From positions 116,898-180,897 of IMG/VR virus record IMGVR_UViG_3300028887_000069: a DNA stretch of 64,000 bases; one strand, written 5' to 3'. This document shows positions 29,755 through 45,277 of this stretch, one piece after another. This DNA is from a virus (Duplodnaviria > Heunggongvirae > Uroviricota > Caudoviricetes). The notes under the pieces are model-generated. The model made no database searches. It was given only the letters and a program-made list of their open reading frames with translations, and was not told the origin of the DNA. The translations under genes were made by a program, and so were the position numbers. The stretch's first letter is position 1. Each line of letters begins with the position of its first letter.

Positions 29755-29807
29755 CAAAAACGATTTGGTCGGTTCAAAAAAACATAGTACCTTTGCAAAC
29801 GTAAACA
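29741..29807 (+). promoter_or_regulatory. Repeated promoter module 8
   Basis: TTGACA-N4-TTAACA, GATTTG, TACCTTTG at 29788-29795, CAAACGTAAACA; drives the NAD operon. Confidence 0.85.
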
Positions 29808-29822
29808 TATAAAATATATCAA

Positions 29823-30416
29823 ATGAACAAACCGAAGATTTTAGTGGTCGTTGACATGCAGAACGATTTTGTCTCAGGTTCACTCGGAAGCGACGATGCC
29901 AAGGCAATCGTTCCGAATGTCATGGAGAAAATCAAGAATTTTAACGGTGAGTACATCATATTCACCCGAGACACCCACACAGACGACTACCTCTACACCA
30001 AGGAAGGTGAGAAACTGCCTGTTGTACATTGTGTAAGGGGCAGCGAGGGTTGGAGGCTTATTCCCGAGATTGAGGAATGGCTTCACAAGAACCTCATGTC
30101 ACGTGAAAAGACTGTCATGGTGGTGGACAAGCCCACATTCGGCTCGGTCTATTCGGACAACGAGACAAAGTCGCTCGTGGAATGTGTAAGCGACATTGTC
30201 GAAGCCAACGGTGGACCGAAGGAATTCGACATTGAGGTTGTAGGCGTCTGTACGAGTATATGTATTGTGTCCAACGCACTGCTGCTCAAGGCTCACTTCT
30301 ACGATACCGCCGAGATAACAGTGGATGCCAAATGCTGCGCATGTGTCAGCAAGGAGACCCACAATGCGGCACTGACCACAATGGAAACATGTCAAATTAA
30401 CGTAATAAACAAATAA
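29823..30416 (+). CDS. pncA: Nicotinamidase (isochorismatase family)
   Basis: VVVDMQNDF, TRDTH, PVVHC..GSEGW, DKPTFGS, GVCTSICI. Confidence 0.88.
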   Translation: MNKPKILVVVDMQNDFVSGSLGSDDAKAIVPNVMEKIKNFNGEYIIFTRDTHTDDYLYTKEGEKLPVVHCVRGSEGWRLIPEIEEWLHKNLMSREKTVMVVDKPTFGSVYSDNETKSLVECVSDIVEANGGPKEFDIEVVGVCTSICIVSNALLLKAHFYDTAEITVDAKCCACVSKETHNAALTTMETCQINVINK

Positions 30417-30417
30417 T

Positions 30418-31443
30418 ATGGCAACAAAAGGACTTAAAAAAAGCGCTTCAAACGTAAAGCAAAAGTATTTGGAACAAGTGGATTTAAACATCACAGATAT
30501 TTGTGAAGATGAAATGGGAGAGGGAAATCTTGCAGGTCAACCTGTATTGGATGACGAATGCGACTGCGGGAACCAATGGTCGTCAATGGACGGCCGCATA
30601 ATTCCCGTGAGCAATGTCTATCCCGTGCTTGCTCCAGGCTACTACACGCTTGGCTACTGCCAAAACCTCGGAATGTACTTTGAGGTCGCCAAGGTGGAGA
30701 CCAACAAACTGTACAGGCTTCCGAACAAGGCAACCGATATCGTGTTGGACGACATTTCGAAATTCTGGACTCTTGAGGAGACCTACAAGAAATACCATAG
30801 GGTGTTCCGCAGAAACTATCTCCTGTATTCAGCGCCTGGAACGGGTAAAACCTCTTTGATAAGCCTCATGTGCAAGGAACTGATTGAGAAGTACGACGGC
30901 GTGGTGTTCTACCTGAACAACAGCAACGATGTCGAGGCGTTCCCCGACGCAATGAGACGCATCAAGAAAATCGAACCCGACAGAAAGATTATCGCCATTA
31001 TCGAGGACATCGACAGTTTCCTCTGCCGTTCAGAACTCAACACAATGCTTCTGAACATACTTGACGGAAACATCAAGATAAACGGCTTGGTGACAATCGC
31101 AACCACCAACCACATCGAGATGATGGAGGACAGATACACCAACCGCCCGTCACGTTTCGACCGTGTCGTGGAGTTCCCGCTTCCGAACGAGGAAAGCCGC
31201 AAGATATTCATTGAGAAGACTGTTCTTCCTGAAGACCTTGAGAAGATAAACATCGACGAATGGGTCAAGAAGACGGAGGGATTCACAATCGACCACATCA
31301 ACGAACTCATACTGTTGTTCTTTGTGTTCGGTCATACTGAGGAAGAGTCATTCGAGACGCTTTACAAGATGACCAAGACCAAGGGCATGTTGAAGAACAC
31401 CACAAGTGTAACAAAGTCGTCAATAGGTTTCACCAACAAATAA
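30418..31443 (+). CDS. AAA+ ATPase
   Basis: Walker A YSAPGTGKT, Walker B IIEDID, TTNH, RPSRFD arginine finger. Confidence 0.88.
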   Translation: MATKGLKKSASNVKQKYLEQVDLNITDICEDEMGEGNLAGQPVLDDECDCGNQWSSMDGRIIPVSNVYPVLAPGYYTLGYCQNLGMYFEVAKVETNKLYRLPNKATDIVLDDISKFWTLEETYKKYHRVFRRNYLLYSAPGTGKTSLISLMCKELIEKYDGVVFYLNNSNDVEAFPDAMRRIKKIEPDRKIIAIIEDIDSFLCRSELNTMLLNILDGNIKINGLVTIATTNHIEMMEDRYTNRPSRFDRVVEFPLPNEESRKIFIEKTVLPEDLEKINIDEWVKKTEGFTIDHINELILLFFVFGHTEEESFETLYKMTKTKGMLKNTTSVTKSSIGFTNK

Positions 31444-31451
31444 CAAAACAT

Positions 31452-32444
31452 ATGAATACAGGTTTGACATATATCAAAAAATATAAGGATGAACTCATCC
31501 AATGGTTGAAAGATTGGTTTGCCGTCAACGGTCCTGATTGCAACGCATGTGTCGGTATCTCGGGCGGTAAGGATTCAAGCACCGTGGCCGCACTCTGTGT
31601 GGAGGCACTTGGCAAAGACCGTGTCGTGGGTGTTCTCATGCCCAACGGGGTACAGAAGGACATCACTGACAGTTTCGCCGTGTGCGACTTCCTCGGCATT
31701 GAAAAACACGTTGTGAACATTGAGGAATCCTACAACGCAATCATAAGGAACTTGGAAGAGAGTGGGATTGAGGTTTCCGAACAGACAAAGGTAAACCTTG
31801 CACCGAGACTCCGCATGTCCACACTCTACGCCGTATCCCAAAGCAGAAACGGGCGTGTTGTCGGTACGGGCAACGCATCGGAGGCACTGTGTGGCTACTA
31901 CACAAGATACGGTGACGGCGCATACGATGTCAACCCGATAGCGGAACTCACAATGGAGGAGGTTGTCGAACTCGGTCTCGAACTCGGACTCCCCGAATAC
32001 CTTGTGAAGAAGGCTCCGTCGGATGGATTGACAGGCAAAACTGATGACGAATGCTTCAAGGAACGTGGCTACTCGTATGCCGAAATCCACGACTTCATAA
32101 TATACGGTACAACGGGCAACTTGGAAACCGACAAGAAGTTGGTTGCAGCAAGAAACGCCTTTGAGTTCAAGAAACACATGGGAGTTACACCGCAGTTGCG
32201 TGAAGGTGCCTATTATGGCATAGCATACCATGATGAATTTGGAAAGGACTTCGCCGACGGCATACCTTGGGTCAACTTCATATCTCAGGATATGCTTGAC
32301 ATTGAGTACGGCATGAACGAGTTGAAAAGCGCATGTTGCCAAGATATGACAGTTTTCAGATACCCGTTCTCGAAAGACGGTCTGTTGGCACCCCAGTCCA
32401 ACATTTCATGGGAATATGTACAAACACATAAAATTGAACTGTAA
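31452..32444 (+). CDS. nadE: NH3-dependent NAD+ synthetase with C-terminal extension
   Basis: GISGGKDSS, VLMP, N..PRLRM..LY, GTGN.SE..GY.TRYGDG, APSDGL. Confidence 0.92.
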   Translation: MNTGLTYIKKYKDELIQWLKDWFAVNGPDCNACVGISGGKDSSTVAALCVEALGKDRVVGVLMPNGVQKDITDSFAVCDFLGIEKHVVNIEESYNAIIRNLEESGIEVSEQTKVNLAPRLRMSTLYAVSQSRNGRVVGTGNASEALCGYYTRYGDGAYDVNPIAELTMEEVVELGLELGLPEYLVKKAPSDGLTGKTDDECFKERGYSYAEIHDFIIYGTTGNLETDKKLVAARNAFEFKKHMGVTPQLREGAYYGIAYHDEFGKDFADGIPWVNFISQDMLDIEYGMNELKSACCQDMTVFRYPFSKDGLLAPQSNISWEYVQTHKIEL

Positions 32445-32547
32445 TGGCGGACATAACAGATTGTCCCGACGTGGTATCCTGTGAAAGCATTGCCGAGTCG
32501 GACAGCACTTTAGTCAATTGTACAAACTATTAAAAAATAAGCACGAT

Positions 32548-32748
32548 ATGTCAGAAAGCAAAAACGTTTCAGTAAACGGCATCAGTTTCGGAGGTGCCCT
32601 CTTTTTGGTGTTCCTTGTCTTGAAACTCTGCCATGTAATCGATTGGAGTTGGTGGTGGGTAACCGCCCCTCTTTGGATTGGCATCCCGTTGGTCGCCATC
32701 CTGTTTGTGATAGTAACCTTGATAATTTATTTTGCTGACCGAAAATAA
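32548..32748 (+). CDS. Small two-helix membrane protein
   Basis: LFLVFLVLKL..VIDWSWWWVTAPLWI pattern common in phages. Confidence 0.75.
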   Translation: MSESKNVSVNGISFGGALFLVFLVLKLCHVIDWSWWWVTAPLWIGIPLVAILFVIVTLIIYFADRK

Positions 32749-32756
32749 GAAATAAT

Positions 32757-34268
32757 ATGAAGAAACATGAAACAATCGCATTATTGCTCTGTGATGGATA
32801 TAAATGTGTACATAACGAGCAGTATTCCAAGGGGTTAACTAAACTCTATTCTTATTTCACCCCGAGAAGAAACCGCATTCCCGAATTGGATACGATGGTA
32901 TTCTTTGGATTGCAGGGGTTCATCAAGAAATACCTTATAGAGTATTTTGACGATAACTTCTTCAATGTGGATGAGGAGGAGGTCATATCCGAGTATACCC
33001 GTGTAATAGACACCATGCTTGGCAAGGGCAACTACGGTATAGAGAAGATAAGAGACCTTCACCGTCTTGGGTATCTTCCGCTTGAGATAAGGGCAATCCC
33101 CGAGGGTTCGATTGTCAACATGGGTGTTCCCTGCATAGAGATAACCAACACGCATGACGATTTCGCATGGGTTGTGCAGTGGGTTGAGAGTCTGCTTTCA
33201 TCAGAGATATGGAAACCGTGTGCACACGCCACTGTAGGTAAACTGTACAGGGATGTTGTGGATGAATGGTACAACAAGACTGTAGATGACAGAATACCGC
33301 ACAGCAAGGCCATCTCCGATTTCGGTTTCCGTGGCATGAGTTGCCGAGAGGAGGCTGAGAAGGCATCAGCCGCATGGCTTGTCTCGTTCGGTGGAACCGC
33401 CACCATACCTGCGGTTAAGTATATAGAGGACTATTACAACGAACGAAATGACGTCAGCCATTTCGCAGTCAATGCCATAAGCACGGAACACAGTGTGATG
33501 TGCTGCAACGCTGCCATCGACGGTGACGAGCGCACGATGGTGAAGAGACTTCTTACCGAGATATATCCGCATGCGTCATTCTCCATGGTATCCGACAGTT
33601 ATGACTATTGGAACATGGTGGACAATATCCTGCCCACCTTGAAGGAGGAAATCCTCAACCATGACGGCAAACTGTTGGTGAGACCCGACAGCGGTGACAT
33701 CATTGACATCTCGGTGAAGACAATCGAGCATCTGTGGGGCATTTTCGGTGGTACTGTGAATACAAAGGGATTCAAGGTACTTGACCCCCACATCGGATGT
33801 GTTTACGGTGACGGGGTTACGATTTCAAGGGCTGCAACAATCTATAAGAAACTATATGAAAGAGGGTTTGCCGCCAACAATATCGTTTTCGGCGCGGGTA
33901 GTTTTTCTTTCACCTGCTACCAAGACAAGAACGGCGAGTTCCAAGCCTTTACCCGTGACACATGGTCATGTGCTATCAAGGCAACGGGTGGTATTGTCAA
34001 CGGTAAGTTCATCCCCATATTCAAAGACCCCAAGACTGACAGGGAATCAGGCTTCTCTTTCAAGAAATCACAGAGAGGGTGCTGCGAAGTGTGGAAGGAT
34101 GACGGTACAGGTCTGTTCAAGTTCGGTGACGGAATCGACCCTACAACCTATGAAAACATGGAATTTCATGGTTCAAATTCCGCATACAGACTTGTATTCA
34201 AAGATGGCATGACAGTCAATGAGGAAACCCTGACAGATATTAGAAAACGCTTGCATGGCAATTTTTAG
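32757..34268 (+). CDS. nadV: NAMPT/NadV-family phosphoribosyltransferase (Ala at the Asp219-equivalent position)
   Basis: DGYK.H, DFGFRG, TEHS, VSDSYD, VRPDSG, YGDG, KDPKTD...KKS motifs. Confidence 0.9.
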   Translation: MKKHETIALLLCDGYKCVHNEQYSKGLTKLYSYFTPRRNRIPELDTMVFFGLQGFIKKYLIEYFDDNFFNVDEEEVISEYTRVIDTMLGKGNYGIEKIRDLHRLGYLPLEIRAIPEGSIVNMGVPCIEITNTHDDFAWVVQWVESLLSSEIWKPCAHATVGKLYRDVVDEWYNKTVDDRIPHSKAISDFGFRGMSCREEAEKASAAWLVSFGGTATIPAVKYIEDYYNERNDVSHFAVNAISTEHSVMCCNAAIDGDERTMVKRLLTEIYPHASFSMVSDSYDYWNMVDNILPTLKEEILNHDGKLLVRPDSGDIIDISVKTIEHLWGIFGGTVNTKGFKVLDPHIGCVYGDGVTISRAATIYKKLYERGFAANNIVFGAGSFSFTCYQDKNGEFQAFTRDTWSCAIKATGGIVNGKFIPIFKDPKTDRESGFSFKKSQRGCCEVWKDDGTGLFKFGDGIDPTTYENMEFHGSNSAYRLVFKDGMTVNEETLTDIRKRLHGNF

Positions 34269-34271
34269 GCT

Positions 34272-34338
34272 TTAACAACCTTTAACAAAAAAGATTTGGT
34301 CCGTTTGGAAAATCTTCTTACTTTTGCAAACGTAAACA
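34272..34338 (+). promoter_or_regulatory. Repeated promoter module 9
   Basis: TTAACA-N4-TTAACA, GATTTG, TACTTTTG at 34319-34326, CAAACGTAAACA. Confidence 0.85.
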
Positions 34339-34362
34339 ATTCTAATCATATAATAAAGAAAA

Positions 34363-35484
34363 ATGGAAAACCAAGACTTGACATTGAGAAACGGAAAGGA
34401 TGAAAAGACAGTCACCGCCCTTTCAGCAAACAACTACAACTATGACGAACGTATCGCCCTGCTCACTCCCGAGGAAAGGGAGAAGTACGAGAAGATAAGT
34501 TCGACAATAAAGGTGACGGACGTGAACAGCGTACAGAGTTACGGCTGCGAACTGAGCAAGACCATTGCACAGAGTGGCGACCAACTGCTCTCGTCGGTAC
34601 GCTCGAACAACAATAACGACTTGGTCGACCTGACGAACCAACTCCTTGGCGAGTTGAACCTTATCAATGTCGACGAGTTGGATTCGAGCAACCGCTTCAA
34701 GAATTTCCTGCGCAGGGTTCCAATCATCAAGAACCTTGTGAAGACTGTCGAGAGTGTGCTTGTGAAGTACGACAGCATATCCGACAACGTTCAGAAGATT
34801 TCGGGCAAGATTGACGTGACACGTGTCGTGGCGATGCGTGACAACTCCACCCTGCGTACTATTTTCGACGCCGACAAGACGTACATTGCGCAGATGAGGG
34901 AGTACATCCTTGCCGCCAAGATGAAACTCAAGGAGATTGACGACGAAGTGGACAAGATGATTGCCAATCCTGCCGACTACGAGGCTTACGACACCAAGAC
35001 GATGATTAGTTTCCGCAACTCCCTTGAGAAGCGTATCGCAGACATGCAGACTCAGGAGTACACGCTGACGCAGTCGCTGCTTCAGGTGGAGACAATCGCA
35101 GCGGGCAACGCTGAGTTGGCACAGAGGGCTGACAACATCGTGAACAACGTGATTCCCCTTTGGAAGAACCAACTTTCCAACGCAATCATCATACAGAACC
35201 AACGCAACGGAATCGAGGCTCAGCAGAAGATAACTGAGGCTACGAACAAGATGCTTCGCACCAATGCCGAGAACATCAGGAAGAACTCCATTGAGGTGGC
35301 CAAGGCTAACGAGGACCCCGTGATAAGTCTGGAAACGCTGCAGCACACCACCAACGAGATTATACAGACACTCAAGGAAGTCAAACAGATACACGACCAA
35401 GGAGCCGCCAACCGCAAGACTCTCGAGGCTTCGCTGAAGGGATATGCCGAGCAGCTTGACCGTGCAATATCCGAGAACGCATAA
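34363..35484 (+). CDS. telA: Toxic anion resistance protein (TelA family)
   Basis: Long helical protein; VQSYG...LLGEL...IPLWKNQL.A...Q..I.EATNKML..NAE...D...LETLQ. Confidence 0.85.
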   Translation: MENQDLTLRNGKDEKTVTALSANNYNYDERIALLTPEEREKYEKISSTIKVTDVNSVQSYGCELSKTIAQSGDQLLSSVRSNNNNDLVDLTNQLLGELNLINVDELDSSNRFKNFLRRVPIIKNLVKTVESVLVKYDSISDNVQKISGKIDVTRVVAMRDNSTLRTIFDADKTYIAQMREYILAAKMKLKEIDDEVDKMIANPADYEAYDTKTMISFRNSLEKRIADMQTQEYTLTQSLLQVETIAAGNAELAQRADNIVNNVIPLWKNQLSNAIIIQNQRNGIEAQQKITEATNKMLRTNAENIRKNSIEVAKANEDPVISLETLQHTTNEIIQTLKEVKQIHDQGAANRKTLEASLKGYAEQLDRAISENA

Positions 35485-36131
35485 TGGCAACGTACAATCG
35501 ACTTATGCTTAACCCAACCCTGGTTAAGGAGGCTACCGACTACTATTACTTGAAATACGTCATTGCTAACGCAGCGTTGACAACGCTGCGTGAGGTAAAG
35601 GAGGAAAAACCATTGAAAACACGTGCTCGGAGAGACCCCAAAAAATACATCACCGTCAGGGAGATAGAGAAGGAGACGGGACTGAACGGCACGGATGTCA
35701 GCAATACCATGCACAATGAAGGCTATCAGTTTTATGATACTGACCCGTTTGTATACGAGGAACGCTATTTCAAGCGTGAGGATTTCTACAAGTGCTATCC
35801 CGACAACATCCCGAGAGGCGAGTTGAAGAGACGTGCCAAGGCAAAGGTGAAACGCAAGTTCGTTGTGGGCGAGCTGCTTTCGCTGAAGACCAAGCCGAAG
35901 TGCGGTTCAAGGGAGATAATCAAGGGGTACAAGGTCATCAAGTACATCTACACGATGAACAGGATTGAGACAAATATCCTTATACTGAAACAGATTTACG
36001 GCCCACAAGGTCACATCTACACACTCAATGCCCATGACTGCAGGAAACTGCACATCAAGTACCAACCTGGGCTGCAGGTGTTCCCGATGAACATGAATTG
36101 GGGAAAATTCAAAGTCAAACTTTACCAATAA
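35484..36131 (+). CDS. Basic hypothetical protein
   Basis: 215-aa ORF coupled to telA stop. Confidence 0.75.
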   Translation: MATYNRLMLNPTLVKEATDYYYLKYVIANAALTTLREVKEEKPLKTRARRDPKKYITVREIEKETGLNGTDVSNTMHNEGYQFYDTDPFVYEERYFKREDFYKCYPDNIPRGELKRRAKAKVKRKFVVGELLSLKTKPKCGSREIIKGYKVIKYIYTMNRIETNILILKQIYGPQGHIYTLNAHDCRKLHIKYQPGLQVFPMNMNWGKFKVKLYQ

Positions 36132-36144
36132 AAATACAGAACAA

Positions 36145-36342
36145 ATGGAAAGAAAGAAATTCATCAGACTCCACAGAGCGTCGGACAACAACAGCGTACT
36201 TGTCCCGATAGAAGTCCTGTTGTTCATTGACTCGGGTCACAACAACAGAAAGGATGCACGTGTAATACTCAAGGATTCACGTGTCGACCCTTTCTATGTG
36301 AACGAGTCGCCTGACAAAATCTATAAAATGTTGGAAGAATAA
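36145..36342 (+). CDS. Small hypothetical protein
   Basis: 65-aa ORF, FYVNESPDKIYKML pattern. Confidence 0.65.
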   Translation: MERKKFIRLHRASDNNSVLVPIEVLLFIDSGHNNRKDARVILKDSRVDPFYVNESPDKIYKMLEE

Positions 36343-36753
36343 AAACACAACGTGAAGGAAGGGACGGGCGTTCTTGACATAACGGTGAGCGACAGTGTGG
36401 CTACGGTTTGCGGGGCGGACATGATGTAATTGATGTTATATGTAAAACACAAAATAAATGCCTTTCAAAACATGCCACACCCATGCACTAAGAACACCTG
36501 AAACGGTAAACCACCTTGAGGGAAGACGGATGTTGGACAACTGACGATTCGTATGATTGGCGGATAGCCATTATACCTATCTTTGAGGAGAAAAGAACCG
36601 ACATATGGATTCATAGAATCAAAGGTAAATGTCCCTGTGGTGTTGAAGTCATGATTATGATGACTTGGTTGAAAAATGTCTTGACGACTTCTTGGCTTGG
36701 CCACCCATTCAGGCTCACCGCCCCTTTTTCCCACGTTAATCAAAGTAAGCATT

Positions 36754-37152
36754 ATGGAGCAAAAAGACAATTACACAGCAAAGATTGTAAAAGGAGTTCT
36801 CGACTCCATTTTCTATTGGCTTCATGAGGACAAGAGAATCATGAGCAGTCAGAAAGCGTTCAACGACGCCACATACGGCAAGAGCATGGACAGGGAGAGT
36901 TTCATCTTGGCGAAACAGGTTGAAATCAACTCCTCCATCCGTGAAAAACTCAACAGTATCCGCTATGGCGAGACAAACTTCAACCGATACTACATCGTTG
37001 TGGGTCTCACCCCGATAGAGGAGGAATACAAGGAGGAGATTTTCAAGCCGTTCCTTGAAGAGGGATACAGGATAATAGACCTTTCCGAGAAGGTTGAGGA
37101 ACTGAAAGGGGAGAACGTCTATATGATAAATTGGAAAAATAGTTTGAAATAA
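36754..37152 (+). CDS. Hypothetical protein
   Basis: ATG 36754 (MEQKDNY...). Confidence 0.7.
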   Translation: MEQKDNYTAKIVKGVLDSIFYWLHEDKRIMSSQKAFNDATYGKSMDRESFILAKQVEINSSIREKLNSIRYGETNFNRYYIVVGLTPIEEEYKEEIFKPFLEEGYRIIDLSEKVEELKGENVYMINWKNSLK

Positions 37153-37176
37153 ATTGTAAAATTTCCCGAAAAATAG

Positions 37177-37184
37177 TATATTTG
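37177..37184 (+). promoter_or_regulatory. Bacteroidota -7 promoter box without the full module
   Basis: TATATTTG ending 17 nt before ATG 37201. Confidence 0.55.
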
Positions 37185-37200
37185 CTAAAACGATAAAGAA

Positions 37201-38235
37201 ATGGCACAGAAAAAAAATCTATTCAGGGTCGAGGTCATCTTCACCAACCGCAAGATAGACGATGCGCTGCTGATTGCGCAGGAAAAGCACTACAGTTATC
37301 TCATTGACGGCACCAAGGACCCGTCGTCAAGCCTTCAGATAGGTGACATCGTTGATTGCCCAACCTATGCAACCCCAATGCAGATTTGCGGGTTCTACAA
37401 GGCGGACAGCGAGTACTACTGCGGCGTGAAACTCAAATACCTCATATACGACTCGGTCAAGAGAAACGGCAAAACAATAACCAAAAAAAATAAAAAGAAC
37501 ATGAAAAGTAACAGAATGATGTCCAACTTCATGGACAAGTTTAAATCACAGTTTCTCCCTGTGGTTGACGAAAACCTGACAATCTCGATGAACGGTCAGG
37601 TGTGTGTACCTATCAATGGCGAGTACGTTGCAATCGACAACAACGGCGAGTTGGTATCCTATCCAAAGGAATTCACCATGGACATGCCCGTCTATCTTAT
37701 CAGCAAGGATGTTGAGGCTGTACAGATTGGAGACGTGGTTCGCACGGGTAACTCGAGTTATTCTAAGGTCGTTGGAATCGAGCGTGGCGACGACGGCAAG
37801 GTGGCCAACATCAAGTCGATTTCCTACAGCGGAACCAACCGTACCGTGAAACCTATCAAGGACTTCATGCTCGGTCAGAAGACCCTGAAGGTTGTCGTAA
37901 ACCTGTTCAATGGTTTCGAGGGCACACAGATTAACCCGATGTTCATGATGCTTGCCGACAAGGACGGTGGCGAGGGACAGGACATGCTTATGATGCTCAT
38001 CGCAATGCAGTCGATGAATCCGACCAACCAAGGTATCATGAATAACATGAATCCGATGATGCTCATGATGTTCATGGACAGCGATGGCAACAACGACTTC
38101 TTCAAGAACATGATGCTTATGCAGATGATGCAGGGCAGCATGGGTAACATGTTCGGAAACGGCATGAACAACATGTTCGGAAACCTGTTCGGTCAGAACA
38201 ACACTAACAATCAGCAGCAAATCCTTAACGACTAA
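37201..38235 (+). CDS. Hypothetical protein with Met/Asn/Gln-rich C-terminus
   Basis: MNPMMLMMFMD...MMQGSMGNMFGNGMNNMFG tail; directly upstream of vWA gene. Confidence 0.75.
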   Translation: MAQKKNLFRVEVIFTNRKIDDALLIAQEKHYSYLIDGTKDPSSSLQIGDIVDCPTYATPMQICGFYKADSEYYCGVKLKYLIYDSVKRNGKTITKKNKKNMKSNRMMSNFMDKFKSQFLPVVDENLTISMNGQVCVPINGEYVAIDNNGELVSYPKEFTMDMPVYLISKDVEAVQIGDVVRTGNSSYSKVVGIERGDDGKVANIKSISYSGTNRTVKPIKDFMLGQKTLKVVVNLFNGFEGTQINPMFMMLADKDGGEGQDMLMMLIAMQSMNPTNQGIMNNMNPMMLMMFMDSDGNNDFFKNMMLMQMMQGSMGNMFGNGMNNMFGNLFGQNNTNNQQQILND

Positions 38236-38239
38236 GACT

Positions 38240-39085
38240 ATGGGTGGCGGTTCATATTCATACTACAACGCTTCAATGAGAAGCCACAGCCTCCGCAGCT
38301 CATCCGTAAGCCGTGAGGAGATATTCCGCAACCGCTGCATGAACGAGGAGATGGACATCAAGGGTAAGACTCGTGAGTCTTGCGACAGCGAGGAACACCC
38401 TGAGTCCTTCCCCGTTATCATAGCACTCGACGTTACGGGCAGCATGGGAATGGTTCCCGAGAAACTTGTCAAGGAGGGATTCCCTGAGATAATGAAGAAA
38501 CTGATGGACGAGGGCATCGACAACCCGCAGGTCTGTTTCGTCGGCATAGGCGACTTTACCTGTGACAACGCCCCGATACAGGTCGGTCAGTTCGAGAGTT
38601 CGGATGAACTCACCGAGAAATGGCTCACCTCACTCTACCTTGAAGGAGGGGGAGGCGGCAACGGTTTTGAGACCTACAGTTTGGCATACTACTTCGCAGC
38701 CCGCCACACCAAGACCGACTAGTTAGACAAACGTGGCAAAAAAGGTGTGCTCATCACCATCGGTGACGACTGTTGCAACAAGGTCATATCCCAGAAAGTT
38801 GGGGAGGAACTGTTCGGAAACTGCGAAAACGATGTCCCGACAAGCGAAATCCTTAGCGAGGCTCTTCAGAAATGGGATGTGTACCACATCAACCTGAAAG
38901 ACTATCTCGGGTCGACAAGTGCGGTCATCAACTCATGGAAAGACCTGCTTGGCGAGAACGTCATCACCACCGAGAACGGCGACGGAAACGACATTTCCTC
39001 AATCATATCGGGACTTGTGCTGCGTTCGTTCAACGGTGACAGCGACAAGAAGAAACAGAACAACGTCATTGACGACGAAGACTGA
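38240..39085 (+). pseudogene. vWA-domain protein with one in-frame TAG
   Basis: MIDAS-like LDVTGSM; ORFs 38240-38722 and 38747-39085 share a frame: ARHTKTD*LDKRGKKGVLITIGDD. Confidence 0.75.
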
Positions 39086-39097
39086 TACAATCTTGGT

Positions 39098-39164
39098 TTA
39101 ACATTTTTTAAGAAAAAACCTCATTGTTATATGGGGTTTTTTGTTATCTTTGCAAACGTAAACC
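39098..39164 (+). promoter_or_regulatory. Repeated promoter module 10 (overlaps a terminator)
   Basis: TTAACA-N4-TTAAGA, TATCTTTG at 39145-39152, CAAACGTAAAC. Confidence 0.75.
39113..39142 (+). terminator. Intrinsic terminator inside promoter module
   Basis: AAAAAACCTCAT-TGTTAT-ATGGGGTTTTTT. Confidence 0.6.
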
Positions 39165-39179
39165 TAAAAAGATAATAAT

Positions 39180-39755
39180 ATGTACAAGTTCATCAAGATT
39201 AAACTCAGGAATTGGACAAAGGGACAATGGTATTTCCAACCTCAATCGGTCCAAGACATAAACGACTTCTTCGACACTGTTGTCCGAAGCGAGATACAGG
39301 ACGGCTTGCACGACGCCGAGGGGGGTCTGTTCCGAACGGGCGCAAGCCACTACACTACCGCTTGGGCGCGGGGCGTGGCGCTGTTTCAGACGCACGGCGG
39401 AGGTGTGGGTTGGGCGATGGCTTCAACCAACCTTGAAAACCAGACGTACCGAGACCGCATAGCGGATTACCTTGATGGCAAGGAACCCCTTTTCGCCAAC
39501 GGAATTCAGTGGCTTAACATGTCCTGCGTGGACGAGATACTCGAAGAGACCGAGAAGGACGAACTCGTGTTCCCCGCCGAGTACTCGATAGACAACGTGC
39601 GCTACATGCAGTGGGGACTCCCCAACAACAAGGGCAAGCATTGGTACGCCAAAATCGAGACAATGGACATACGTGACGAGGCGGGCAACATGAAGTGGGA
39701 CACGAGAAAGGAAGCCGAGGAAGCGGCGAAATGGTTTATTGAACACAAACTTTAG
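39180..39755 (+). CDS. Hypothetical protein
   Basis: 191-aa ORF after promoter. Confidence 0.75.
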   Translation: MYKFIKIKLRNWTKGQWYFQPQSVQDINDFFDTVVRSEIQDGLHDAEGGLFRTGASHYTTAWARGVALFQTHGGGVGWAMASTNLENQTYRDRIADYLDGKEPLFANGIQWLNMSCVDEILEETEKDELVFPAEYSIDNVRYMQWGLPNNKGKHWYAKIETMDIRDEAGNMKWDTRKEAEEAAKWFIEHKL

Positions 39756-39763
39756 GAAAACAT

Positions 39764-39994
39764 ATGAGAATTTACAGAGATGACACACAGGGTTCGTTTG
39801 CACCCGAGATAGGCGAGGAGTTCATCTGCGAGATAGGACTGAACAGGCTGCATCTCATTGCAGAGGAGAGCGAAAGGGGCACCGATTGCGAGTGTTGCCC
39901 GTTGGCTGCGCTTTGCAAGCCTGGTTTCGGGGTGAAGTGCCATTACATGACCCGTTCGGACAACAAGAACATCAAACTGAAACTAATCTTCTGA
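39764..39994 (+). CDS. Small Cys-rich protein
   Basis: DCECCPL..LC...C, resembles the family E N-module. Confidence 0.65.
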   Translation: MRIYRDDTQGSFAPEIGEEFICEIGLNRLHLIAEESERGTDCECCPLAALCKPGFGVKCHYMTRSDNKNIKLKLIF

Positions 39995-40539
39995 TGAGAA
40001 GACTGTATTGGACAAGGAACAGGTGCTTCAGGGAGGCAAAGAAATACAAGAGGATAACGGATTTCCGTTTCTTCGCCTCGGGTGCCTTCAGGTCAGCCTA
40101 CAAGAACGGATGGCTTGGGGACTACACATGGTTCAGGAAATACAAGAAGTGGACCAAGGAGGAATGCATGGACGTAGCCCTGAAATACCACACGAAGAAC
40201 GAGATGCGCAACAACAGTCCCGCCGCCTATTGGTTCGCATACAAGCGTGGGTGGGTCGACGAGTATTGGTGGTTCATCGATTGGGAAGTCGCCAAGGATG
40301 AGTGGGGAAAGGTTATCGGCTATGCGATAAGGGTGTATGCGGAGAAGGGGTTGGAGGCTTGTAAGGAAGAATGCAGGAAGAAGAGCGAGGACGAGACCCT
40401 TGGCGACGAAGTGAGGAAACTGTACAGGTACGTGGCGGACAGCAGCACCGAGAAATGGTTCTCATGGGCTAAGAAGAATTGGTATTACTATTACCCCGAA
40501 AAAAGATATTTTAAGAAAAAAGACAATGAAAAAGATTGA
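39994..40539 (+). CDS. Protein with two WT.E.C..A.KY...AY..A...GW repeats (homing-endonuclease-associated DNA-binding type)
   Basis: Repeat unit visible twice; ATG 39994. Confidence 0.6.
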   Translation: MRRLYWTRNRCFREAKKYKRITDFRFFASGAFRSAYKNGWLGDYTWFRKYKKWTKEECMDVALKYHTKNEMRNNSPAAYWFAYKRGWVDEYWWFIDWEVAKDEWGKVIGYAIRVYAEKGLEACKEECRKKSEDETLGDEVRKLYRYVADSSTEKWFSWAKKNWYYYYPEKRYFKKKDNEKD

Positions 40540-41089
40540 ATTTTATGCAGGCTGCAGTATTGACGAAGCCTACGAGATGCTGCTCAATGAAGCAAAGACA
40601 TGCGGTGAAGGCTGCTTTGGAACCTTCAACGGCAAGGAAATCCGTTCCACCGAGACGCTTGACGAGGTGTACACCAAACTGACGGGCAAGACAAAGGCTG
40701 AGTTTGACCGGGGACAGAAAGAATGGAAGGAAAAGTACGACAGGGAATTGGCAGAACACAACGAGAGAATTCCAGAGTATACCGAGAAATACCGTCAGGA
40801 GGCAAGAGGGCTTGTGCTTGACGAGGAGTTGGAGTATTGGGACAAAATCGTCCCCATTCGCCTCAATGACCTCTATCGTGGCATGGAACTCCGCAACACA
40901 CTTGACATTTGCCGCATAATGCGTGATGAGAGTATTGAGTACCCCGAGCGTCTGAAAATGGCATACAAACTGTTCATGGATGAAGGGCACAGTGGTATGT
41001 CGGCCGGACTCACTGCATCGATGATAAAGAGATTCTGTCCGCACGGCGAGGATGTGGCGGACGCTGTACTCAATTTCAGGTTTGAATAG
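40526..41089 (+). CDS. Conserved phage hypothetical protein
   Basis: 187-aa ORF, IVPIRLNDLYRGMEL...QGHSGMS-like motif. Confidence 0.75.
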   Translation: MKKIEFYAGCSIDEAYEMLLNEAKTCGEGCFGTFNGKEIRSTETLDEVYTKLTGKTKAEFDRGQKEWKEKYDRELAEHNERIPEYTEKYRQEARGLVLDEELEYWDKIVPIRLNDLYRGMELRNTLDICRIMRDESIEYPERLKMAYKLFMDEGHSGMSAGLTASMIKRFCPHGEDVADAVLNFRFE

Positions 41090-41091
41090 AG

Positions 41092-41280
41092 ATGGAAAGG
41101 ACTGTCACAAACATACTTGACCATTTCAGCACCGACGACTTTGTGTTGGAAGATGTCGGCACGGAATACCGTGGCGGAACGCTTGTCGTGTTCTATAAGG
41201 AATGGTATCTACCTATAGAAGAAGTTTTCCACCTGATTAACAGTGGGAAACGCATATCCTTAACAAACTTTAGGAAATAA
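41092..41280 (+). CDS. Small hypothetical protein
   Basis: 62-aa ORF. Confidence 0.55.
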   Translation: MERTVTNILDHFSTDDFVLEDVGTEYRGGTLVVFYKEWYLPIEEVFHLINSGKRISLTNFRK

Positions 41281-41326
41281 TATTTGTCTGTTTCAGACAT
41301 TCTTCCTATCTTTGCAAACGTAAACA
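41260..41326 (+). promoter_or_regulatory. Repeated promoter module 11
   Basis: TTAACA-N4-TTAGGA, TATTTG, TATCTTTG at 41307-41314, CAAACGTAAACA. Confidence 0.85.
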
Positions 41327-41337
41327 AATAAATTGAG

Positions 41338-41778
41338 ATGGAAATAAGGAACAAAAAGGTATACTTTGACTATTTCGTGGAAGACGAATACGTGGCGGGC
41401 ATCGTGCTTGTCGGCGGTGAGATTAAGAGTGTCCGCAAGGGTAACGCATCGATAGGTGAGGCATTCTGCTATGTTTCCCCCGAGGGTGAGATGATGCTCA
41501 AGGGTTCGTACATCAAACTGTACGAAAACGCAGGCTATATGAAATATGACGAGCATCGCCTTCGCAAACTTCTTCTCAAGAAGTCCGAGATAACAAAGAT
41601 AACCCGTTTCATGAAGGAACACAAGACAGGCTATACGATTATACCACTCTCGATGTTCATCAACGACAAGGGCTACTGCAAGGTGAAGATAGGCGTATGC
41701 AAGGGAAAGAAGAACTACGACAAGAGGGCAGCCATCAAGGAGAAGGACATTGACAGACAAACAAAGCGTGAGATATGA
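41338..41778 (+). CDS. smpB: SsrA-binding protein SmpB
   Basis: NKK.YFDYF...AGIVL.G.EIKSVR, RKLLL.K.EI, IIPL, GKK.YDKR. Confidence 0.92.
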   Translation: MEIRNKKVYFDYFVEDEYVAGIVLVGGEIKSVRKGNASIGEAFCYVSPEGEMMLKGSYIKLYENAGYMKYDEHRLRKLLLKKSEITKITRFMKEHKTGYTIIPLSMFINDKGYCKVKIGVCKGKKNYDKRAAIKEKDIDRQTKREI

Positions 41779-42044
41779 AGTACATGATTTCCTTTCTGAC
41801 AGACAACAAGTTTAACAACGGATATGTTGCGGGTATCCTGAGCAAGTACTGTAAGAATTATTACGGTCAAGTATCAGGTCTCATATTTTTTGAGTCCGAC
41901 ATCGGGATGGACACAATAAGGGACGGGTTGAATGCGAAGAATCTGGATTTTTTTCATTATAGTACCCCTAAGCAGATACAGTGGCAGACTCCCGAACAAA
42001 TATTGGGAATTTATGAAGGTTGGTACAGGTGGAAAGGAAATTGA
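41775..42044 (+). CDS. Hypothetical protein
   Basis: 89-aa ORF, ATGA overlap. Confidence 0.65.
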   Translation: MKYMISFLTDNKFNNGYVAGILSKYCKNYYGQVSGLIFFESDIGMDTIRDGLNAKNLDFFHYSTPKQIQWQTPEQILGIYEGWYRWKGN

Positions 42045-42098
42045 TAAGGTCGAGACAATCAACTATGACGATTTTTGTTCTTAAAATATACAAATAAC

Positions 42099-43070
42099 AT
42101 GAATACATATTTCAATTGGAACCTTGCACAGAGGTTTGTGAACGACTACAGACTCCCAATACCGATTATCAGCGCGGAGATTTTTAACTATCATCTGCGC
42201 CTGTATGAAAAAGAATACGGAGCACTGACCAAGTGGAACAAATTGCTGAATTTCATTGACAACAGGTATGACGGTAACACGATGAACACTCGTATAGAAC
42301 AGTTCCTAAAGGAGTTCTACGAAGTGCGTGAACGAATTATCACCGAAATCCCGCAGAAAGAGGCGTTCCAACGTTTCAACAATATGGACATGTCGGTCTT
42401 TCCTGTCAAGAAACTCACGCCCAAGTGTTCAAGTCTCTACAACGAGACAAACATAGGTAAATTCTTCATCTCCATAGACCTCACGAAGGGTAACTTCCAG
42501 GCGTTGAACTACGCCGATAAAGATATATTGGAAGCCGACACCTACGATGAATTCATACGAAAGTACACCGACATCTATTACATAGCGGAGAGCAAATATT
42601 TCCGACAGGTGATATTCGGGAAGATGAATCCCTCCCGCCATATCACTGTGGAGAAGCATATAATAGGGAAGGTTTATGACCTGTTTGTTCGGGAGTATGG
42701 AGAGAACATGCCTCTTGTAGTCTATAACTCGGATGAACTTGTATTCGAGTTTACTGATTCGGTGCCTGTGAACATTGAACATGCGGTTGAAGGAAAAGTC
42801 AAGAACGAACTTGGTATTAACGTGCACTGTGAAGTATTTTCGCTCAACGGCTATAATTTCTTCTCCGAGAGGGAACGTCACAAGAGGTGCACATATTTTG
42901 AGAAATACAGTCTTGGTTCAGAACTCATGTGCATTCCACTGCCCTACCATACGCTGATATACAAACTGCATAATGGTCTTGACCTCAATGAGAAGGATTA
43001 TCATTTCAACTATGAGAACATTGACTGCATATTCAACGACAATTTCTATATTCAAAAAATCCGAAAATAA
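42099..43070 (+). CDS. Hypothetical protein with polymerase-palm-like motifs
   Basis: SIDLTKGNFQAL, SKYFRQVIFG, YNSDELVF. Confidence 0.55.
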   Translation: MNTYFNWNLAQRFVNDYRLPIPIISAEIFNYHLRLYEKEYGALTKWNKLLNFIDNRYDGNTMNTRIEQFLKEFYEVRERIITEIPQKEAFQRFNNMDMSVFPVKKLTPKCSSLYNETNIGKFFISIDLTKGNFQALNYADKDILEADTYDEFIRKYTDIYYIAESKYFRQVIFGKMNPSRHITVEKHIIGKVYDLFVREYGENMPLVVYNSDELVFEFTDSVPVNIEHAVEGKVKNELGINVHCEVFSLNGYNFFSERERHKRCTYFEKYSLGSELMCIPLPYHTLIYKLHNGLDLNEKDYHFNYENIDCIFNDNFYIQKIRK

Positions 43071-43076
43071 CAGAAC

Positions 43077-43757
43077 ATGACAGAGTTTGAAAAATACGCC
43101 ACCAAGCATTGTGGCATCGGAAGCACCACGTATGGAAAATACAGTTCGGCGATAACTTCGTCGCTTACGCCATACATCATTGAGGAACGCCAACTCAACA
43201 TGACACAGATGGACGTGTTCTCACGCCTCATGGCTGACCGTATCATTTTCCTCGGCACGGAGATTGACGACCTAACCGCCAACATCATTCAGGCACAGTT
43301 GCTGTTCCTTGAATCGGTGGACTGTGAGAAAGACATATCAATCTATCTCAATTCACCTGGAGGCTCGGTGCATGCAGGTCTCGCCATCTATGACACCATG
43401 CAGATGATAAAGCCGAAAATCTCCACGATATGCACAGGACTCGCCGCTTCGATGGCTTCCGTACTCTTGTGTGCAGGTGAGAAGGGAATGCGTTTTGCCC
43501 TGCCCCACAGCCGTGTGATGATTCACCAACCGATGGGTGGTGCACACGGACAGGCTTCCGACATGGAAATCACAGTGCGTGAGATACAGAAACTAAAGAA
43601 GGAACTTTATGACATAATATCCCTCCACAGCGGAAAACCCTACGAGGAGGTCGAGAAGGATTCCGACCGTGACCATTGGCTGACCGCACAGGAGGCGATG
43701 GAATACGGAATGGTGGACGAGGTGCTTCATGCACGTTCTGAAAAAGTAAACAGATAA
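43077..43757 (+). CDS. clpP: ATP-dependent Clp protease proteolytic subunit
   Basis: YLNSPGGSV, GLAASMAS (catalytic Ser), MIHQP (His), DRDHW (Asp). Confidence 0.93.
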   Translation: MTEFEKYATKHCGIGSTTYGKYSSAITSSLTPYIIEERQLNMTQMDVFSRLMADRIIFLGTEIDDLTANIIQAQLLFLESVDCEKDISIYLNSPGGSVHAGLAIYDTMQMIKPKISTICTGLAASMASVLLCAGEKGMRFALPHSRVMIHQPMGGAHGQASDMEITVREIQKLKKELYDIISLHSGKPYEEVEKDSDRDHWLTAQEAMEYGMVDEVLHARSEKVNR

Positions 43758-43769
43758 TACCAAAAGGAT

Positions 43770-44618
43770 ATGAAACGGATTAATTTAGTAGACATTGGCA
43801 AGTCAGACATCAAGTATGAGATTTTCAGTTTCCCCGACGGTGAGAAACATATCAAACTCGAACCGTTCGACAGAAAGGATTTGTATGAGGTTGCGGTACG
43901 AATCAAATCGGGTGACGATTTGTTCCTCCTTGCACAAGTAGGCGACATCCTCAAACGGGCAGGTGTTTACTTCACCATCAAGATTTACTACCTGATGTCA
44001 ATGAGAATGGACCGTGTCATGACATACGAGGAGGCATTCTCGTTGGACATTGTGGCAAAAATCATTAACAGTATAGGGGCAAATTTCGTGCAGGTTTTCC
44101 ACCCGCATTCAAATACCGTCTACCGCCTTATTGATAATTGCCAAGCATATGACGAACCCGTTCTTGGTCAAGGCGGTTCATACGATGTAATTCTTGACAC
44201 CTATAAACCTCTTGAGACAACTTACTGCTATCCTGACGCAGGTGCTGCAGCACGTTACGGAAGGGGAGAAAAGGATAAAATCATCCTTTCAAAGAAAAGG
44301 GATATAAACAACAAGGGGGCAATCACGAATATGGAAATCTCCGAGTCCCCTGACAATGTGTGTAAAAACATCCTCATTGTAGATGACCTCTGCGACGGTG
44401 GCCGTACATTCGTTGAGGCTGCAAAGATTCTGCGTGAGAAATACAAGCCCGAAAGACTTGGCATCTTTGTCCGTCACCTCGTCAATCCATACGGTCAAAT
44501 GCAGCTGATTAACACGTTTGACGATGTATATGTAACCAATTCTTACGATGAATGGAATACAAACAGCATCATTACACCTGACTGTAAAAACTTCCACGTT
44601 ATAGACATTATCAAATGA
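43770..44618 (+). CDS. prs: Ribose-phosphate pyrophosphokinase-like protein (Prs/Adps-like)
   Basis: FPDGE, Y..S.RMDR, HPHS, PDAGA, K.RD, IVDDLCDGGRTF. Confidence 0.85.
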   Translation: MKRINLVDIGKSDIKYEIFSFPDGEKHIKLEPFDRKDLYEVAVRIKSGDDLFLLAQVGDILKRAGVYFTIKIYYLMSMRMDRVMTYEEAFSLDIVAKIINSIGANFVQVFHPHSNTVYRLIDNCQAYDEPVLGQGGSYDVILDTYKPLETTYCYPDAGAAARYGRGEKDKIILSKKRDINNKGAITNMEISESPDNVCKNILIVDDLCDGGRTFVEAAKILREKYKPERLGIFVRHLVNPYGQMQLINTFDDVYVTNSYDEWNTNSIITPDCKNFHVIDIIK

Positions 44619-45277
44619 GCAAGACTGATTCACTCCATTACCAACTCTGCGTCGAGGGCGGGAAGTGGCTCAAACGCAGCAAGCGCAACTACGAGAGGTG
44701 CAAGACCAAGCCTTGCCACGTTCCCGAACTCTGCCGTGTATGCACAAAGCACCGTATCGTCGCCGTGGAACTCGTGACGCTTACTGCCGAGAACTGCGAC
44801 GTGTGGGGCTACGACGGTTGGAACACGACGGTCATAGAGGTCAAGACCTCACACTCCGATTTCCTCCACGACATGAAAAAGACGGCGAGGAACATCGATG
44901 TAAAGTATCAGTTGGGTAATGTGCGGTGGTATCTATGCCCCGAGGGGATAATCAAGAAAGAAGAACTTCCCGAAGGGTGGGGACTGCTCTATTGGAACGG
45001 AAAAAAGATAACGCCGATAGCGGCTCCCGTAAGGAGAGAGGGTTGCACAGCCGACCTCCGTATGCTCTATAGCATAATGCTGCGCGAGGGGATGTGCGAC
45101 AAAATCTATAACTACCGAGGTGTGCCATCTACCATAAAGCCGCAGACGATTAACGGAATGCCCGCAGGGGAATACTACAAGAAGAAAAGGGGTGTGGGGT
45201 ACGAAAGCGTGGATGTGGAAAGCCAAGGGCTTTTCGAGTTCAAAGAGGAACACACCGTCTTTCCCGACAACATTTGA
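44615..45277 (+). CDS. PD-(D/E)XK nuclease-like protein (MmcB-like)
   Basis: CDVWGY..TTVIEVKTSHSDF.D..K...RWYLCP.GII...ELPEGWGLL. Confidence 0.65.
   Translation: MSKTDSLHYQLCVEGGKWLKRSKRNYERCKTKPCHVPELCRVCTKHRIVAVELVTLTAENCDVWGYDGWNTTVIEVKTSHSDFLHDMKKTARNIDVKYQLGNVRWYLCPEGIIKKEELPEGWGLLYWNGKKITPIAAPVRREGCTADLRMLYSIMLREGMCDKIYNYRGVPSTIKPQTINGMPAGEYYKKKRGVGYESVDVESQGLFEFKEEHTVFPDNI

Follow-up and report, generated by a model that had tools for sequence, protein, structure and literature searches.

The stretch of DNA analysed here, referred to below as the window, comprises 64,000 nt (bases 116,898-180,897) of a 235,679-bp IMG/VR virus record whose completeness is put at 65% by CheckV. The carrier is a giant, or jumbo, phage of gut Bacteroidota. 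We examined four genes of the window that together may form a route for rebuilding NAD+, namely those of a nicotinamidase (PncA), an NAD+ synthetase (NadE), a transferase of the Namat family and an ADP-ribose pyrophosphokinase-like protein (Adps). All features given below lie on the + strand of the window unless stated otherwise. A first reading of the sequence, here called the original prediction, had named these gene families, and profile matches for nicotinamidase, NadE, a Namat/Nampt homologue and a Prs/Adps-like protein bear it out. Adps and Namat are the components of the NAD+ reconstitution pathway 1 (NARP1) of phages SPbetaL1, Bas63, ICP1 and FADO (bioRxiv 10.1101/2024.02.11.579819; structures in PMC12774641 and PMC13586617).

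Gene organization

The PncA-like protein (197 residues, 29823..30416; PF00857, 76.7 bits) belongs to the isochorismatase/nicotinamidase family and is proposed to convert nicotinamide to nicotinate. It is followed by an AAA+ ATPase (341 residues, 30418..31443; PF00004), by an NH3-dependent NadE that has no glutaminase domain (330 residues, 31452..32444; PF02540, 170.9 bits), by a small hydrophobic protein (66 residues, 32548..32748; phrog_1374, 81.7 bits) and by the Namat-family transferase (503 residues, 32757..34268; phrog_448, 540 bits), which is of the Ala/Ser215 type described below and is a proposed nicotinate ADP-ribose transferase. The Adps-like ADP-ribose pyrophosphokinase (282 residues, 43770..44618; phrog_619, 185 bits) lies further downstream and is of the classical Bacteroidota-phage NARP1 lineage. 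We refer to the transferase and the pyrophosphokinase by their start positions, 32757 and 43770.

Promoters of the Bacteroidota type (TTTG-N-TAnnTTTG) were found at 29764, 34295 and 41283, all of them intergenic and 24-37 nt 5' of a start codon. A stricter pattern has 5 occurrences in the window, where 0.03 would be expected. The promoter at 29764..29798 (TTTGG-N19-TACCTTTGCAA) is located 28 nt 5' of the PncA ATG and drives the PncA unit, and the one at 41283..41314, of the same type, drives SmpB-orf89-orf331-ClpP-Adps-orf220 and the genes that follow, with intergenic gaps of at most 30 nt from SmpB to orf220. From these promoter positions, PncA, the AAA ATPase, NadE, the small open reading frame (ORF) and Namat form a single promoter-driven unit of five closely packed genes, as had been predicted, and Adps is part of a second unit with a promoter of the same class. 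Scans for sigma-70 promoters and for terminators gave no signal above chance, and a megablast search of the gene cluster against phage records returned no match.

The Namat-family transferase

Among solved structures, the 32757 protein matched 9w5x/9w5w with 406 bits, 9ke8 with 333 bits and human NAMPT with 184 bits. We take 9w5x/9w5w to be the structure of SPbetaL1 Namat from the equal length (491 residues) and the sequences GTDT and GSFTYQYNTRD. The protein shares 42% of its residues with SPbetaL1 Namat and 44% with FADO Namat, which belong to validated NARP1 systems, and 34% with the Nampt of Vibrio phage KVP40. Models of nicotinate phosphoribosyltransferase (NAPRT) were not matched, TIGR01513 giving 18 bits (cut-off 297) and PRK12484 24.8 bits (cut-off 330). 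When a maximum-likelihood tree of Namats was rooted on KVP40 Nampt, the sequences that have Ala or Ser at position 215 (the A/S type) all fell into one clade (support of 100 in the SH-like approximate likelihood ratio test, SH-aLRT; stem length 0.82), which is nested among Namats with Asp or Glu at this position (the D/E type), including those of SPbetaL1 and ICP1. The placement of 32757 that had been proposed as a check therefore shows SPbetaL1 Namat to be a far nearer relative of it than either human NAMPT or KVP40 Nampt.

Codon GCC at 33399..33401 encodes Ala215 in place of the Asp that binds the amide of nicotinamide (Asp215 in SPbetaL1 Namat, Asp219 in human NAMPT). This residue aligned without gaps to the Asp of GTDT both with HMMER against 9w5x and with MAFFT against SPbetaL1 Namat, and the substitution stands as it was first read. 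The codon at 33480..33482 encodes Ser242 in place of the pocket residue Ala242 of Namat. The Namat crystal structure shows seven contacts to nicotinamide, among them Asp215 and Ala242 (PMC12774641). The D215A mutant of Namat shows a roughly 8-fold lower nicotinamide-dependent formation of NAD+ and has residual activity left. With reference to Khan et al. 2006, reviews (PMC4919578, PMC7096376) list the human NAMPT mutant D219S as a substrate-affinity switch and D219A as an activity loss.

A further difference lies in the adenine 'selectivity clamp helix', where the HMMER alignment to 9w5x places a ten-residue insertion, TCYQDKNGEF (33912..33941), between GSFSF and TRD. The clamp reads GSFSF-[TCYQDKNGEF]-QAF-TRD, with the aromatic residue of position 3 kept and Cys at position 7, and so departs from the Namat clamp pattern. 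Arg40, the stacking Arg of the clamp loop, is present at the identical number. The catalytic core of SPbetaL1 Namat (D13, Y15, F189, R192, H245, R306 and D308) is kept in full and is invariant in the clade.

These features are shared by the relatives of the protein. In the best 121 homologues from a collection of 5.8 billion proteins, position 215 was Ala in 68 and Ser in 53, and Asp in none, and the clamp insertion (about 10 residues in clade members) was present in all 121. We also scanned alignment columns for differences between 63 proteins of the A/S type and 14 of the D/E type. Asp215 was replaced by Ala or Ser in 63/63, and position 242 was Ser in 63/63 against Ala in 14/14 of the D/E type. 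Other changes in the A/S type were His187 to Ser, Ala or Gly, Asn33 to Tyr, Ala172 to Tyr, Arg299 to His, and His207 to Trp in this sample (Phe in many members from bacterial genomes). The aromatic residue at 392 that stacks on adenine, which is Gly in KVP40 Nampt, was kept in 60 of the 63 proteins and Arg40 in 45; T398-R399-D400 was invariant. In the 32757 protein, Phe383 corresponds to Phe392 of SPbetaL1 Namat.

Several observations concern the wider family. Some A/S-type homologues carry 150-350 additional residues without a Pfam match, for example the proteins P0106 (646 residues) and P0024 (682 residues) and an ORF of about 850 residues in loci L020 and L021; some such forms belong to very abundant clusters, that of P0106 having 2406 member sequences. 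Classical Namats of Bacteroidota phages have Glu rather than Asp at position 215, as in Lak-C1 (L044), DAC15 (L041) and L046 (GSES, GSET and GGET). The structure that AlphaFold2 predicted for the 32757 protein from an alignment of 10 sequences was of low quality (mean predicted local distance difference test score, pLDDT, of 55) and was not used.

The Adps homologue and its lineage

The 43770 protein is the sole Adps/Prs homologue in the record. The hallmarks that separate Adps from phosphoribosyl pyrophosphate (PRPP) synthetases are a remodelled PP loop of the form DDxCDG..F, the catalytic Lys185, the acceptor residues F18, R87, H121, D161, D212 and D213, and the loss of the C-terminal PRPS helices (PMC13586617). 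The PP loop of 43770, DDLCDGGRTF, resembles those of ICP1 Adps (DDICDGAASF) and of classical NARP1 systems in loci L023 and L032 (DD[IL]CDGGRTF), as opposed to DDMIDTGGTL in Escherichia coli Prs; its ribose-5-phosphate loop is CDGGRT and not the IDTGGT of Prs. The protein keeps F18, R87, H121, D161 and the catalytic K185, and all Adps residues listed except Phe92, which is Met. Its C-terminus coincides with the end of ICP1 Adps, about 21 residues short of that of E. coli Prs, and its score with the Prs family TIGR01251 was 53.7 bits, below the cut-off of 113.

In the Adps tree, in which the split between Adps and Prs rests on a single outgroup (E. coli Prs) together with motifs, 43770 falls in a clade with the Adps of the Lak megaphage Lak-C1 and of the crAss-like phages DAC15 and cr85_1 (SH-aLRT 99). 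Here too the phylogenetic check turned out as predicted, since 43770 groups with phage Adps that are linked to Namat and carries a PP loop of the Adps type. The partners of the Adps in this clade are Namats with Glu215, adjacent to Adps in DAC15 and cr85_1 and without NadE; the Adps of L046, which is 76% identical to 43770, also adjoins a Glu215 Namat. Osterman et al. counted as Adps those homologues whose genes are at most 10 genes away from Namat (bioRxiv 10.1101/2024.02.11.579819). The 43770 gene, 14 genes away, exceeds this distance; its nearest relatives in DAC15, cr85_1 and L046 adjoin a Namat gene. The window is not the sole case of unlinked NARP1 genes, since Adps and Namat of Lak-C1 are encoded about 85 kb apart.

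A comparison with the syntenic sister phage L048 is informative with regard to the history of this gene. The two phages share Namat (77% identity), TelA (70%), SmpB (73%) and orf335 (60%), and a stretch of 11 kb in L048 contains the four NAD genes in a different gene order. In L048 the equivalent slot after orf335 holds an Adps of the lineage that goes with cassettes of the A/S type, which is only 27% identical to 43770 and about 41% identical to that of L003. On this comparison, 43770 is a putative classical-lineage Adps that displaced one of the cassette type. In the Adps tree as a whole, the label of the partner (A/S or D/E type) changes at least three times. Such a swap would be expected if both lineages make base-independent ADPR-PP, the pyrophosphorylated form of ADP-ribose (ADPR), and from this gene history the two Adps lineages appear to be interchangeable. 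The same history makes it less likely that the 'Adps' linked to cassettes is an ordinary PRPP synthetase. The swap may be regarded as a natural experiment, which suggests that the first step does not depend on the base used.

Next to Adps, orf220 (44615-45277) encodes a Cys-rich protein of 220 residues, has a 4-nt overlap with the Adps stop codon and gives weak PHROG 'DNA repair' matches. Its sequence reads like a nuclease motif of the PD-(D/E)xK type (D..E.K). We considered this protein as a partner that handles ADPR and rejected it, on the grounds of these weak matches, the nuclease-like motif and the lack of a Pfam or PADLOC match. A gene of 331 residues that stands beside Namat in L045 and L049 has no homologue in the genome of the window.

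PncA and NadE

The top PDB match of PncA was the pyrazinamidase/nicotinamidase of P. horikoshii, with which its D11-K103-C147 triad and metal ligands D50, H52 and H69 align; these six residues are invariant in 20 distinct homologues linked to related gene clusters. NadE scored 174.5 bits with TIGR00552, against a cut-off of 63.65, and contains the ATP pyrophosphatase motif GISGGKDSS (of the SGGxDS type). Its best PDB matches were 2e18 and 3fiu. By these features, and by the intact catalytic core of the transferase, the enzymes look active. The C-terminus of NadE is about 80 residues longer (residues about 250-330) than in the NadE proteins of cassettes (243-290 residues), and this extension has no family match.

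Gene neighbourhoods of the transferase types

We compared 36 loci with Namat homologues from IMG/VR and 80 loci from GTDB species genomes, bacterial and archaeal and mostly of gut Clostridia. In all 25 untruncated A/S-type loci from IMG/VR, genes for PncA, NadE and an Adps-like protein lie within a few kb, usually in a contiguous operon PncA-Adps-Namat-NadE. The Asp215 loci from IMG/VR have only Adps (10/10). PncA and NadE were likewise not seen near Namat in ICP1, DAC15, Lak-C1 and L046, which have Asp or Glu at position 215, and there is no NadE in the 540 kb of Lak-C1. In the genome loci, A/S215 together with S242 was found in all 79 of the 80 that could be read at these positions. The full set of four genes lies within 8 kb in 57/80, and about 12 of the loci are cut by contig ends. 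Among 50,697 phage records of INPHARED, 1901 have a Namat or Nampt homologue and 37 have NadE; the sole record more than 50% identical to the 32757 transferase is an uncultured contig from the human gut in which NadE adjoins it. The near absence of the A/S type from cultured phages, together with its commonness in gut viromes and Clostridia genomes, may explain why it was missed, including by the original NARP1 survey.

The AAA ATPase between PncA and NadE requires a separate account. Its Walker A, Walker B and arginine finger are intact, and it has more than 1000 homologues with 65-92% identity, many of them on contigs of 300-390 kb. In a 364-kb relative (L136) no NAD genes adjoin it, and the 36 viral and 80 genome loci with Namat all lack it. 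The copy in a related phage that is 92% identical is again flanked by PncA and NadE. The gene probably belongs to the conserved core of this jumbo-phage group, with NAD genes inserted around it, and not to the pathway. Its listing with the NAD genes in the original prediction is corrected here to that of a likely bystander in the unit, and a role as chaperone or regulator of the pathway was rejected on the same grounds of high conservation and occurrence without NAD genes. In L135, the phage with the 92% identical copy, an IS605-type TnpB (L135:2545-3852, - strand) stands directly after PncA-AAA-NadE, with no Namat in the next 6 kb, and the NAD module there may be disrupted.

Proposed pathway and alternative explanations

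In the pathway that we propose, PncA would convert nicotinamide freed by NADase defences to nicotinate, and Adps (43770) would pyrophosphorylate ADPR to ADPR-PP. The Namat-type enzyme with Ala215 and Ser242 (32757) would then combine ADPR-PP and nicotinate directly to deamido-NAD (NaAD), which NadE would amidate to NAD+ with ATP and ammonia. No adenylyltransferase would be needed. The four genes probably rebuild NAD+ in this manner from its breakdown products, via nicotinate and as a counter-defence, where we infer substrates, products and role from sequence. We lean, with somewhat less assurance, to the broader reading that the Ala/Ser215-Ser242 branch as a whole is a nicotinate ADP-ribose transferase and that PncA-Adps-Namat-NadE is a distinct and widespread pathway of gut phages and Clostridia in which the Adps step is modular. 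Comparative support for the deamidated four-enzyme route that was first suggested comes from the A/S clade within NARP1 Namats, from the linkage with PncA, Adps and NadE, and from the lack of NadD or NMNAT in the record. The A/S clade derives from Namats that use ADPR-PP, and it keeps the aromatic residue at 392, Arg40 and TRD, which supports ADPR-PP as the likely donor. The promoter type common to both units also speaks in favour of the pathway. Specific to the window are the split layout in two units, the AAA ATPase as bystander, and an Adps of the classical lineage where the cassette Adps has been displaced.

As for adenylyltransferases, a PF01467 search of the whole record found no NadD, NadM, NadR or NMNAT. 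The window contains none, as predicted, and the lone PF01467 match of the record lies 4.2 kb past the end of the window. This gene (183 residues; record positions 185134-185541, - strand; L001:1378-1929) has CoaD as its best curated model (77.8 bits, below cut-off), matches NadD/NMNAT models only with E of about 0.002, and has phosphopantetheine adenylyltransferases (PPAT) as 34/34 of its PDB matches. It has no homologue in the 36 related viral or 80 genome Namat loci, and a distant one is found in L046, a phage with classical Glu215 NARP1. Macro, PnuC and Nudix genes were absent from the record.

A number of results weigh against the proposed pathway. The 43770 gene is separated from 32757 by 9.5 kb and 14 genes and belongs to another transcription unit. 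Tyr396 of the clamp is Cys or Ala in the A/S type, and with this loss and an insertion of about 10 residues the recognition of adenine, and hence the use of ADPR-PP, could be weakened or lost. In about 11/80 genome loci with ample flanking sequence, one or two of the partner genes are missing within 8 kb. Since the A/S type arose once on the tree, its association with PncA and NadE is a single retained event and not repeated independent evidence. We take 3fiu, the second-best solved relative of NadE, to be the Francisella enzyme that prefers nicotinate mononucleotide (NaMN). Finally, the CoaD-like gene just beyond the window is a nucleotidyltransferase of the same superfamily as NadD, and with the record 65% complete a NadD could sit in the missing part.

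The main rival explanation is ordinary Preiss-Handler salvage by way of PRPP, NaMN and a host NadD. In this phage-boosted version of salvage, PRPP would be supplied by 43770 or host Prs, the Ala215 enzyme would make NaMN, a host NadD or the CoaD-like phage enzyme would convert it to NaAD, and NadE would finish the synthesis. Gut Bacteroidota and Clostridia possess NadD, and the record does hold a PF01467 nucleotidyltransferase. The change of Asp215 to Ala or Ser alters the preference for the base and is silent on the ribosyl donor, and Namat mutants of the clamp, which is altered here by the loss of Tyr396 and the insertion, retain activity with PRPP. However, 43770 has a PP loop of the Adps type, a truncated C-terminus and a Prs score below cut-off, and it clusters with Adps linked to Namat; the descent of the A/S clade from Namats that use ADPR-PP, with Phe392, Arg40 and TRD kept, also speaks for the other donor. 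NadD is moreover the sole step that is never encoded in the cassettes, and the PF01467 gene matches only PPAT among solved structures and has a distant homologue in L046, a relative with classical NARP1. We therefore regard phage-boosted salvage as rather unlikely, and as the best of the alternatives.

A mixed or promiscuous pathway, in which the Ala215 enzyme accepts both bases or both donors and PncA and NadE drain nicotinamide or top up the deamidated flux of the host, seems to us less probable still. Namat uses both PRPP and ADPR-PP in vitro, the D215A mutant keeps some activity after its 8-fold loss, and NadE or PncA is not nearby in some of the genome loci. Nevertheless, the replacement of Asp215 together with Ser in place of Ala242 in 63/63 proteins points to a committed rather than a relaxed specificity, and the linkage with both PncA and NadE is near perfect in viral loci. 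A chance neighbourhood of four unrelated auxiliary metabolic genes in a large phage genome is an explanation that we consider very improbable. The arrangement in two transcription units and the interleaving with the AAA ATPase, TelA, SmpB and ClpP would agree with it, but the same four families form contiguous operons in most relatives, the sister phage L048 keeps all four close together in another gene order, and NadE is rare among phage records.

Comparison with known systems

The pathway proposed here is apparently an unpublished variant of a known phage counter-defence. In the literature we found no description of a deamidated or nicotinate-type NARP, of a 'NARP4', or of the formation of NaAD from ADPR-PP and nicotinate. 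It is closest to NARP1, with which it shares a Namat 42% identical to that of SPbetaL1, an Adps with the same PP-loop motif, catalytic Lys and C-terminal truncation, and the presumed logic of rebuilding NAD+ from ADPR and a pyridine base with ATP. It differs in the Ala215, Ser242, 10-residue clamp insertion and missing Tyr396 of its Namat, in nicotinamidase and NadE as obligatory companions of the A/S type, and in the implied product of the transferase, which would be NaAD instead of NAD+. In the window, the two core genes are in addition 14 genes apart and the lineage of Adps is swapped.

Preiss-Handler salvage (PncA, PncB, NadD and NadE) also runs via nicotinate and deamido-NAD, with PncA as the first and NadE as the last enzyme. 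The route of the window has neither a NAPRT of the PncB family nor NadD, and the Namat-family enzyme and Adps would replace both middle steps by one reaction. NARP2 (Nampt and Nmnat, Vibrio phage KVP40) and NARP3 (PnuC and NadR, PMC13464706) are likewise phage-encoded means of restoring NAD+, and NARP2 uses an enzyme of the Nampt family. However, KVP40 Nampt is an outgroup (34% identity) to the transferase of the window, and Nmnat, NadR and PnuC are lacking in its record. NARP1-AP, in which NARP1 is joined by the Macro-domain ADPR-1''-phosphatase Adpp (bioRxiv 10.64898/2026.01.28.702374), is similar in that accessory enzymes extend NARP1; the record of the window has no Macro domain, and the enzymes added there would act on the pyridine base and not on ADPR.

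If the proposed pathway is correct, it would be a fourth phage route that undoes NAD+-depleting immunity (Thoeris, DSR, SIR2-HerA and others), and it would include a new enzyme activity, the formation of NaAD from nicotinate and ADPR-PP, which dispenses with NAPRT and NadD. A detour through nicotinate that costs ATP could suit hosts in which nicotinamide is deamidated fast, could evade counter-measures against the amidated route, or could profit from the irreversible pull of NadE.

Neighbouring genes

Between the two NAD units, a protein of 187 residues (40526-41089) gave a sub-threshold match to Tad3 (PF25185, E = 7e-4, 19.8 bits, cut-off 27), which is a hint only; Tad3 is an inhibitor of type I Thoeris. 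The promoter-driven unit of Adps also contains SmpB (41338-41778; PF01668, 161 bits) and a ClpP-like protease (43077-43757; PF00574, 266 bits), and the corresponding order in the sister phage L048 is SmpB-orf335-Adps without ClpP. Just 5' of PncA lies an adenylosuccinate-synthetase-like gene (28537-29754; PF00709, 108 bits) that is also present in L048. Directly 3' of Namat, a TelA-family gene (PF05816, 235 bits) and a partner of 215 residues without a family (34295-36131) have a Bacteroidota-type promoter of their own, and this pair stays beside the NAD genes in the relatives L048 and L049.

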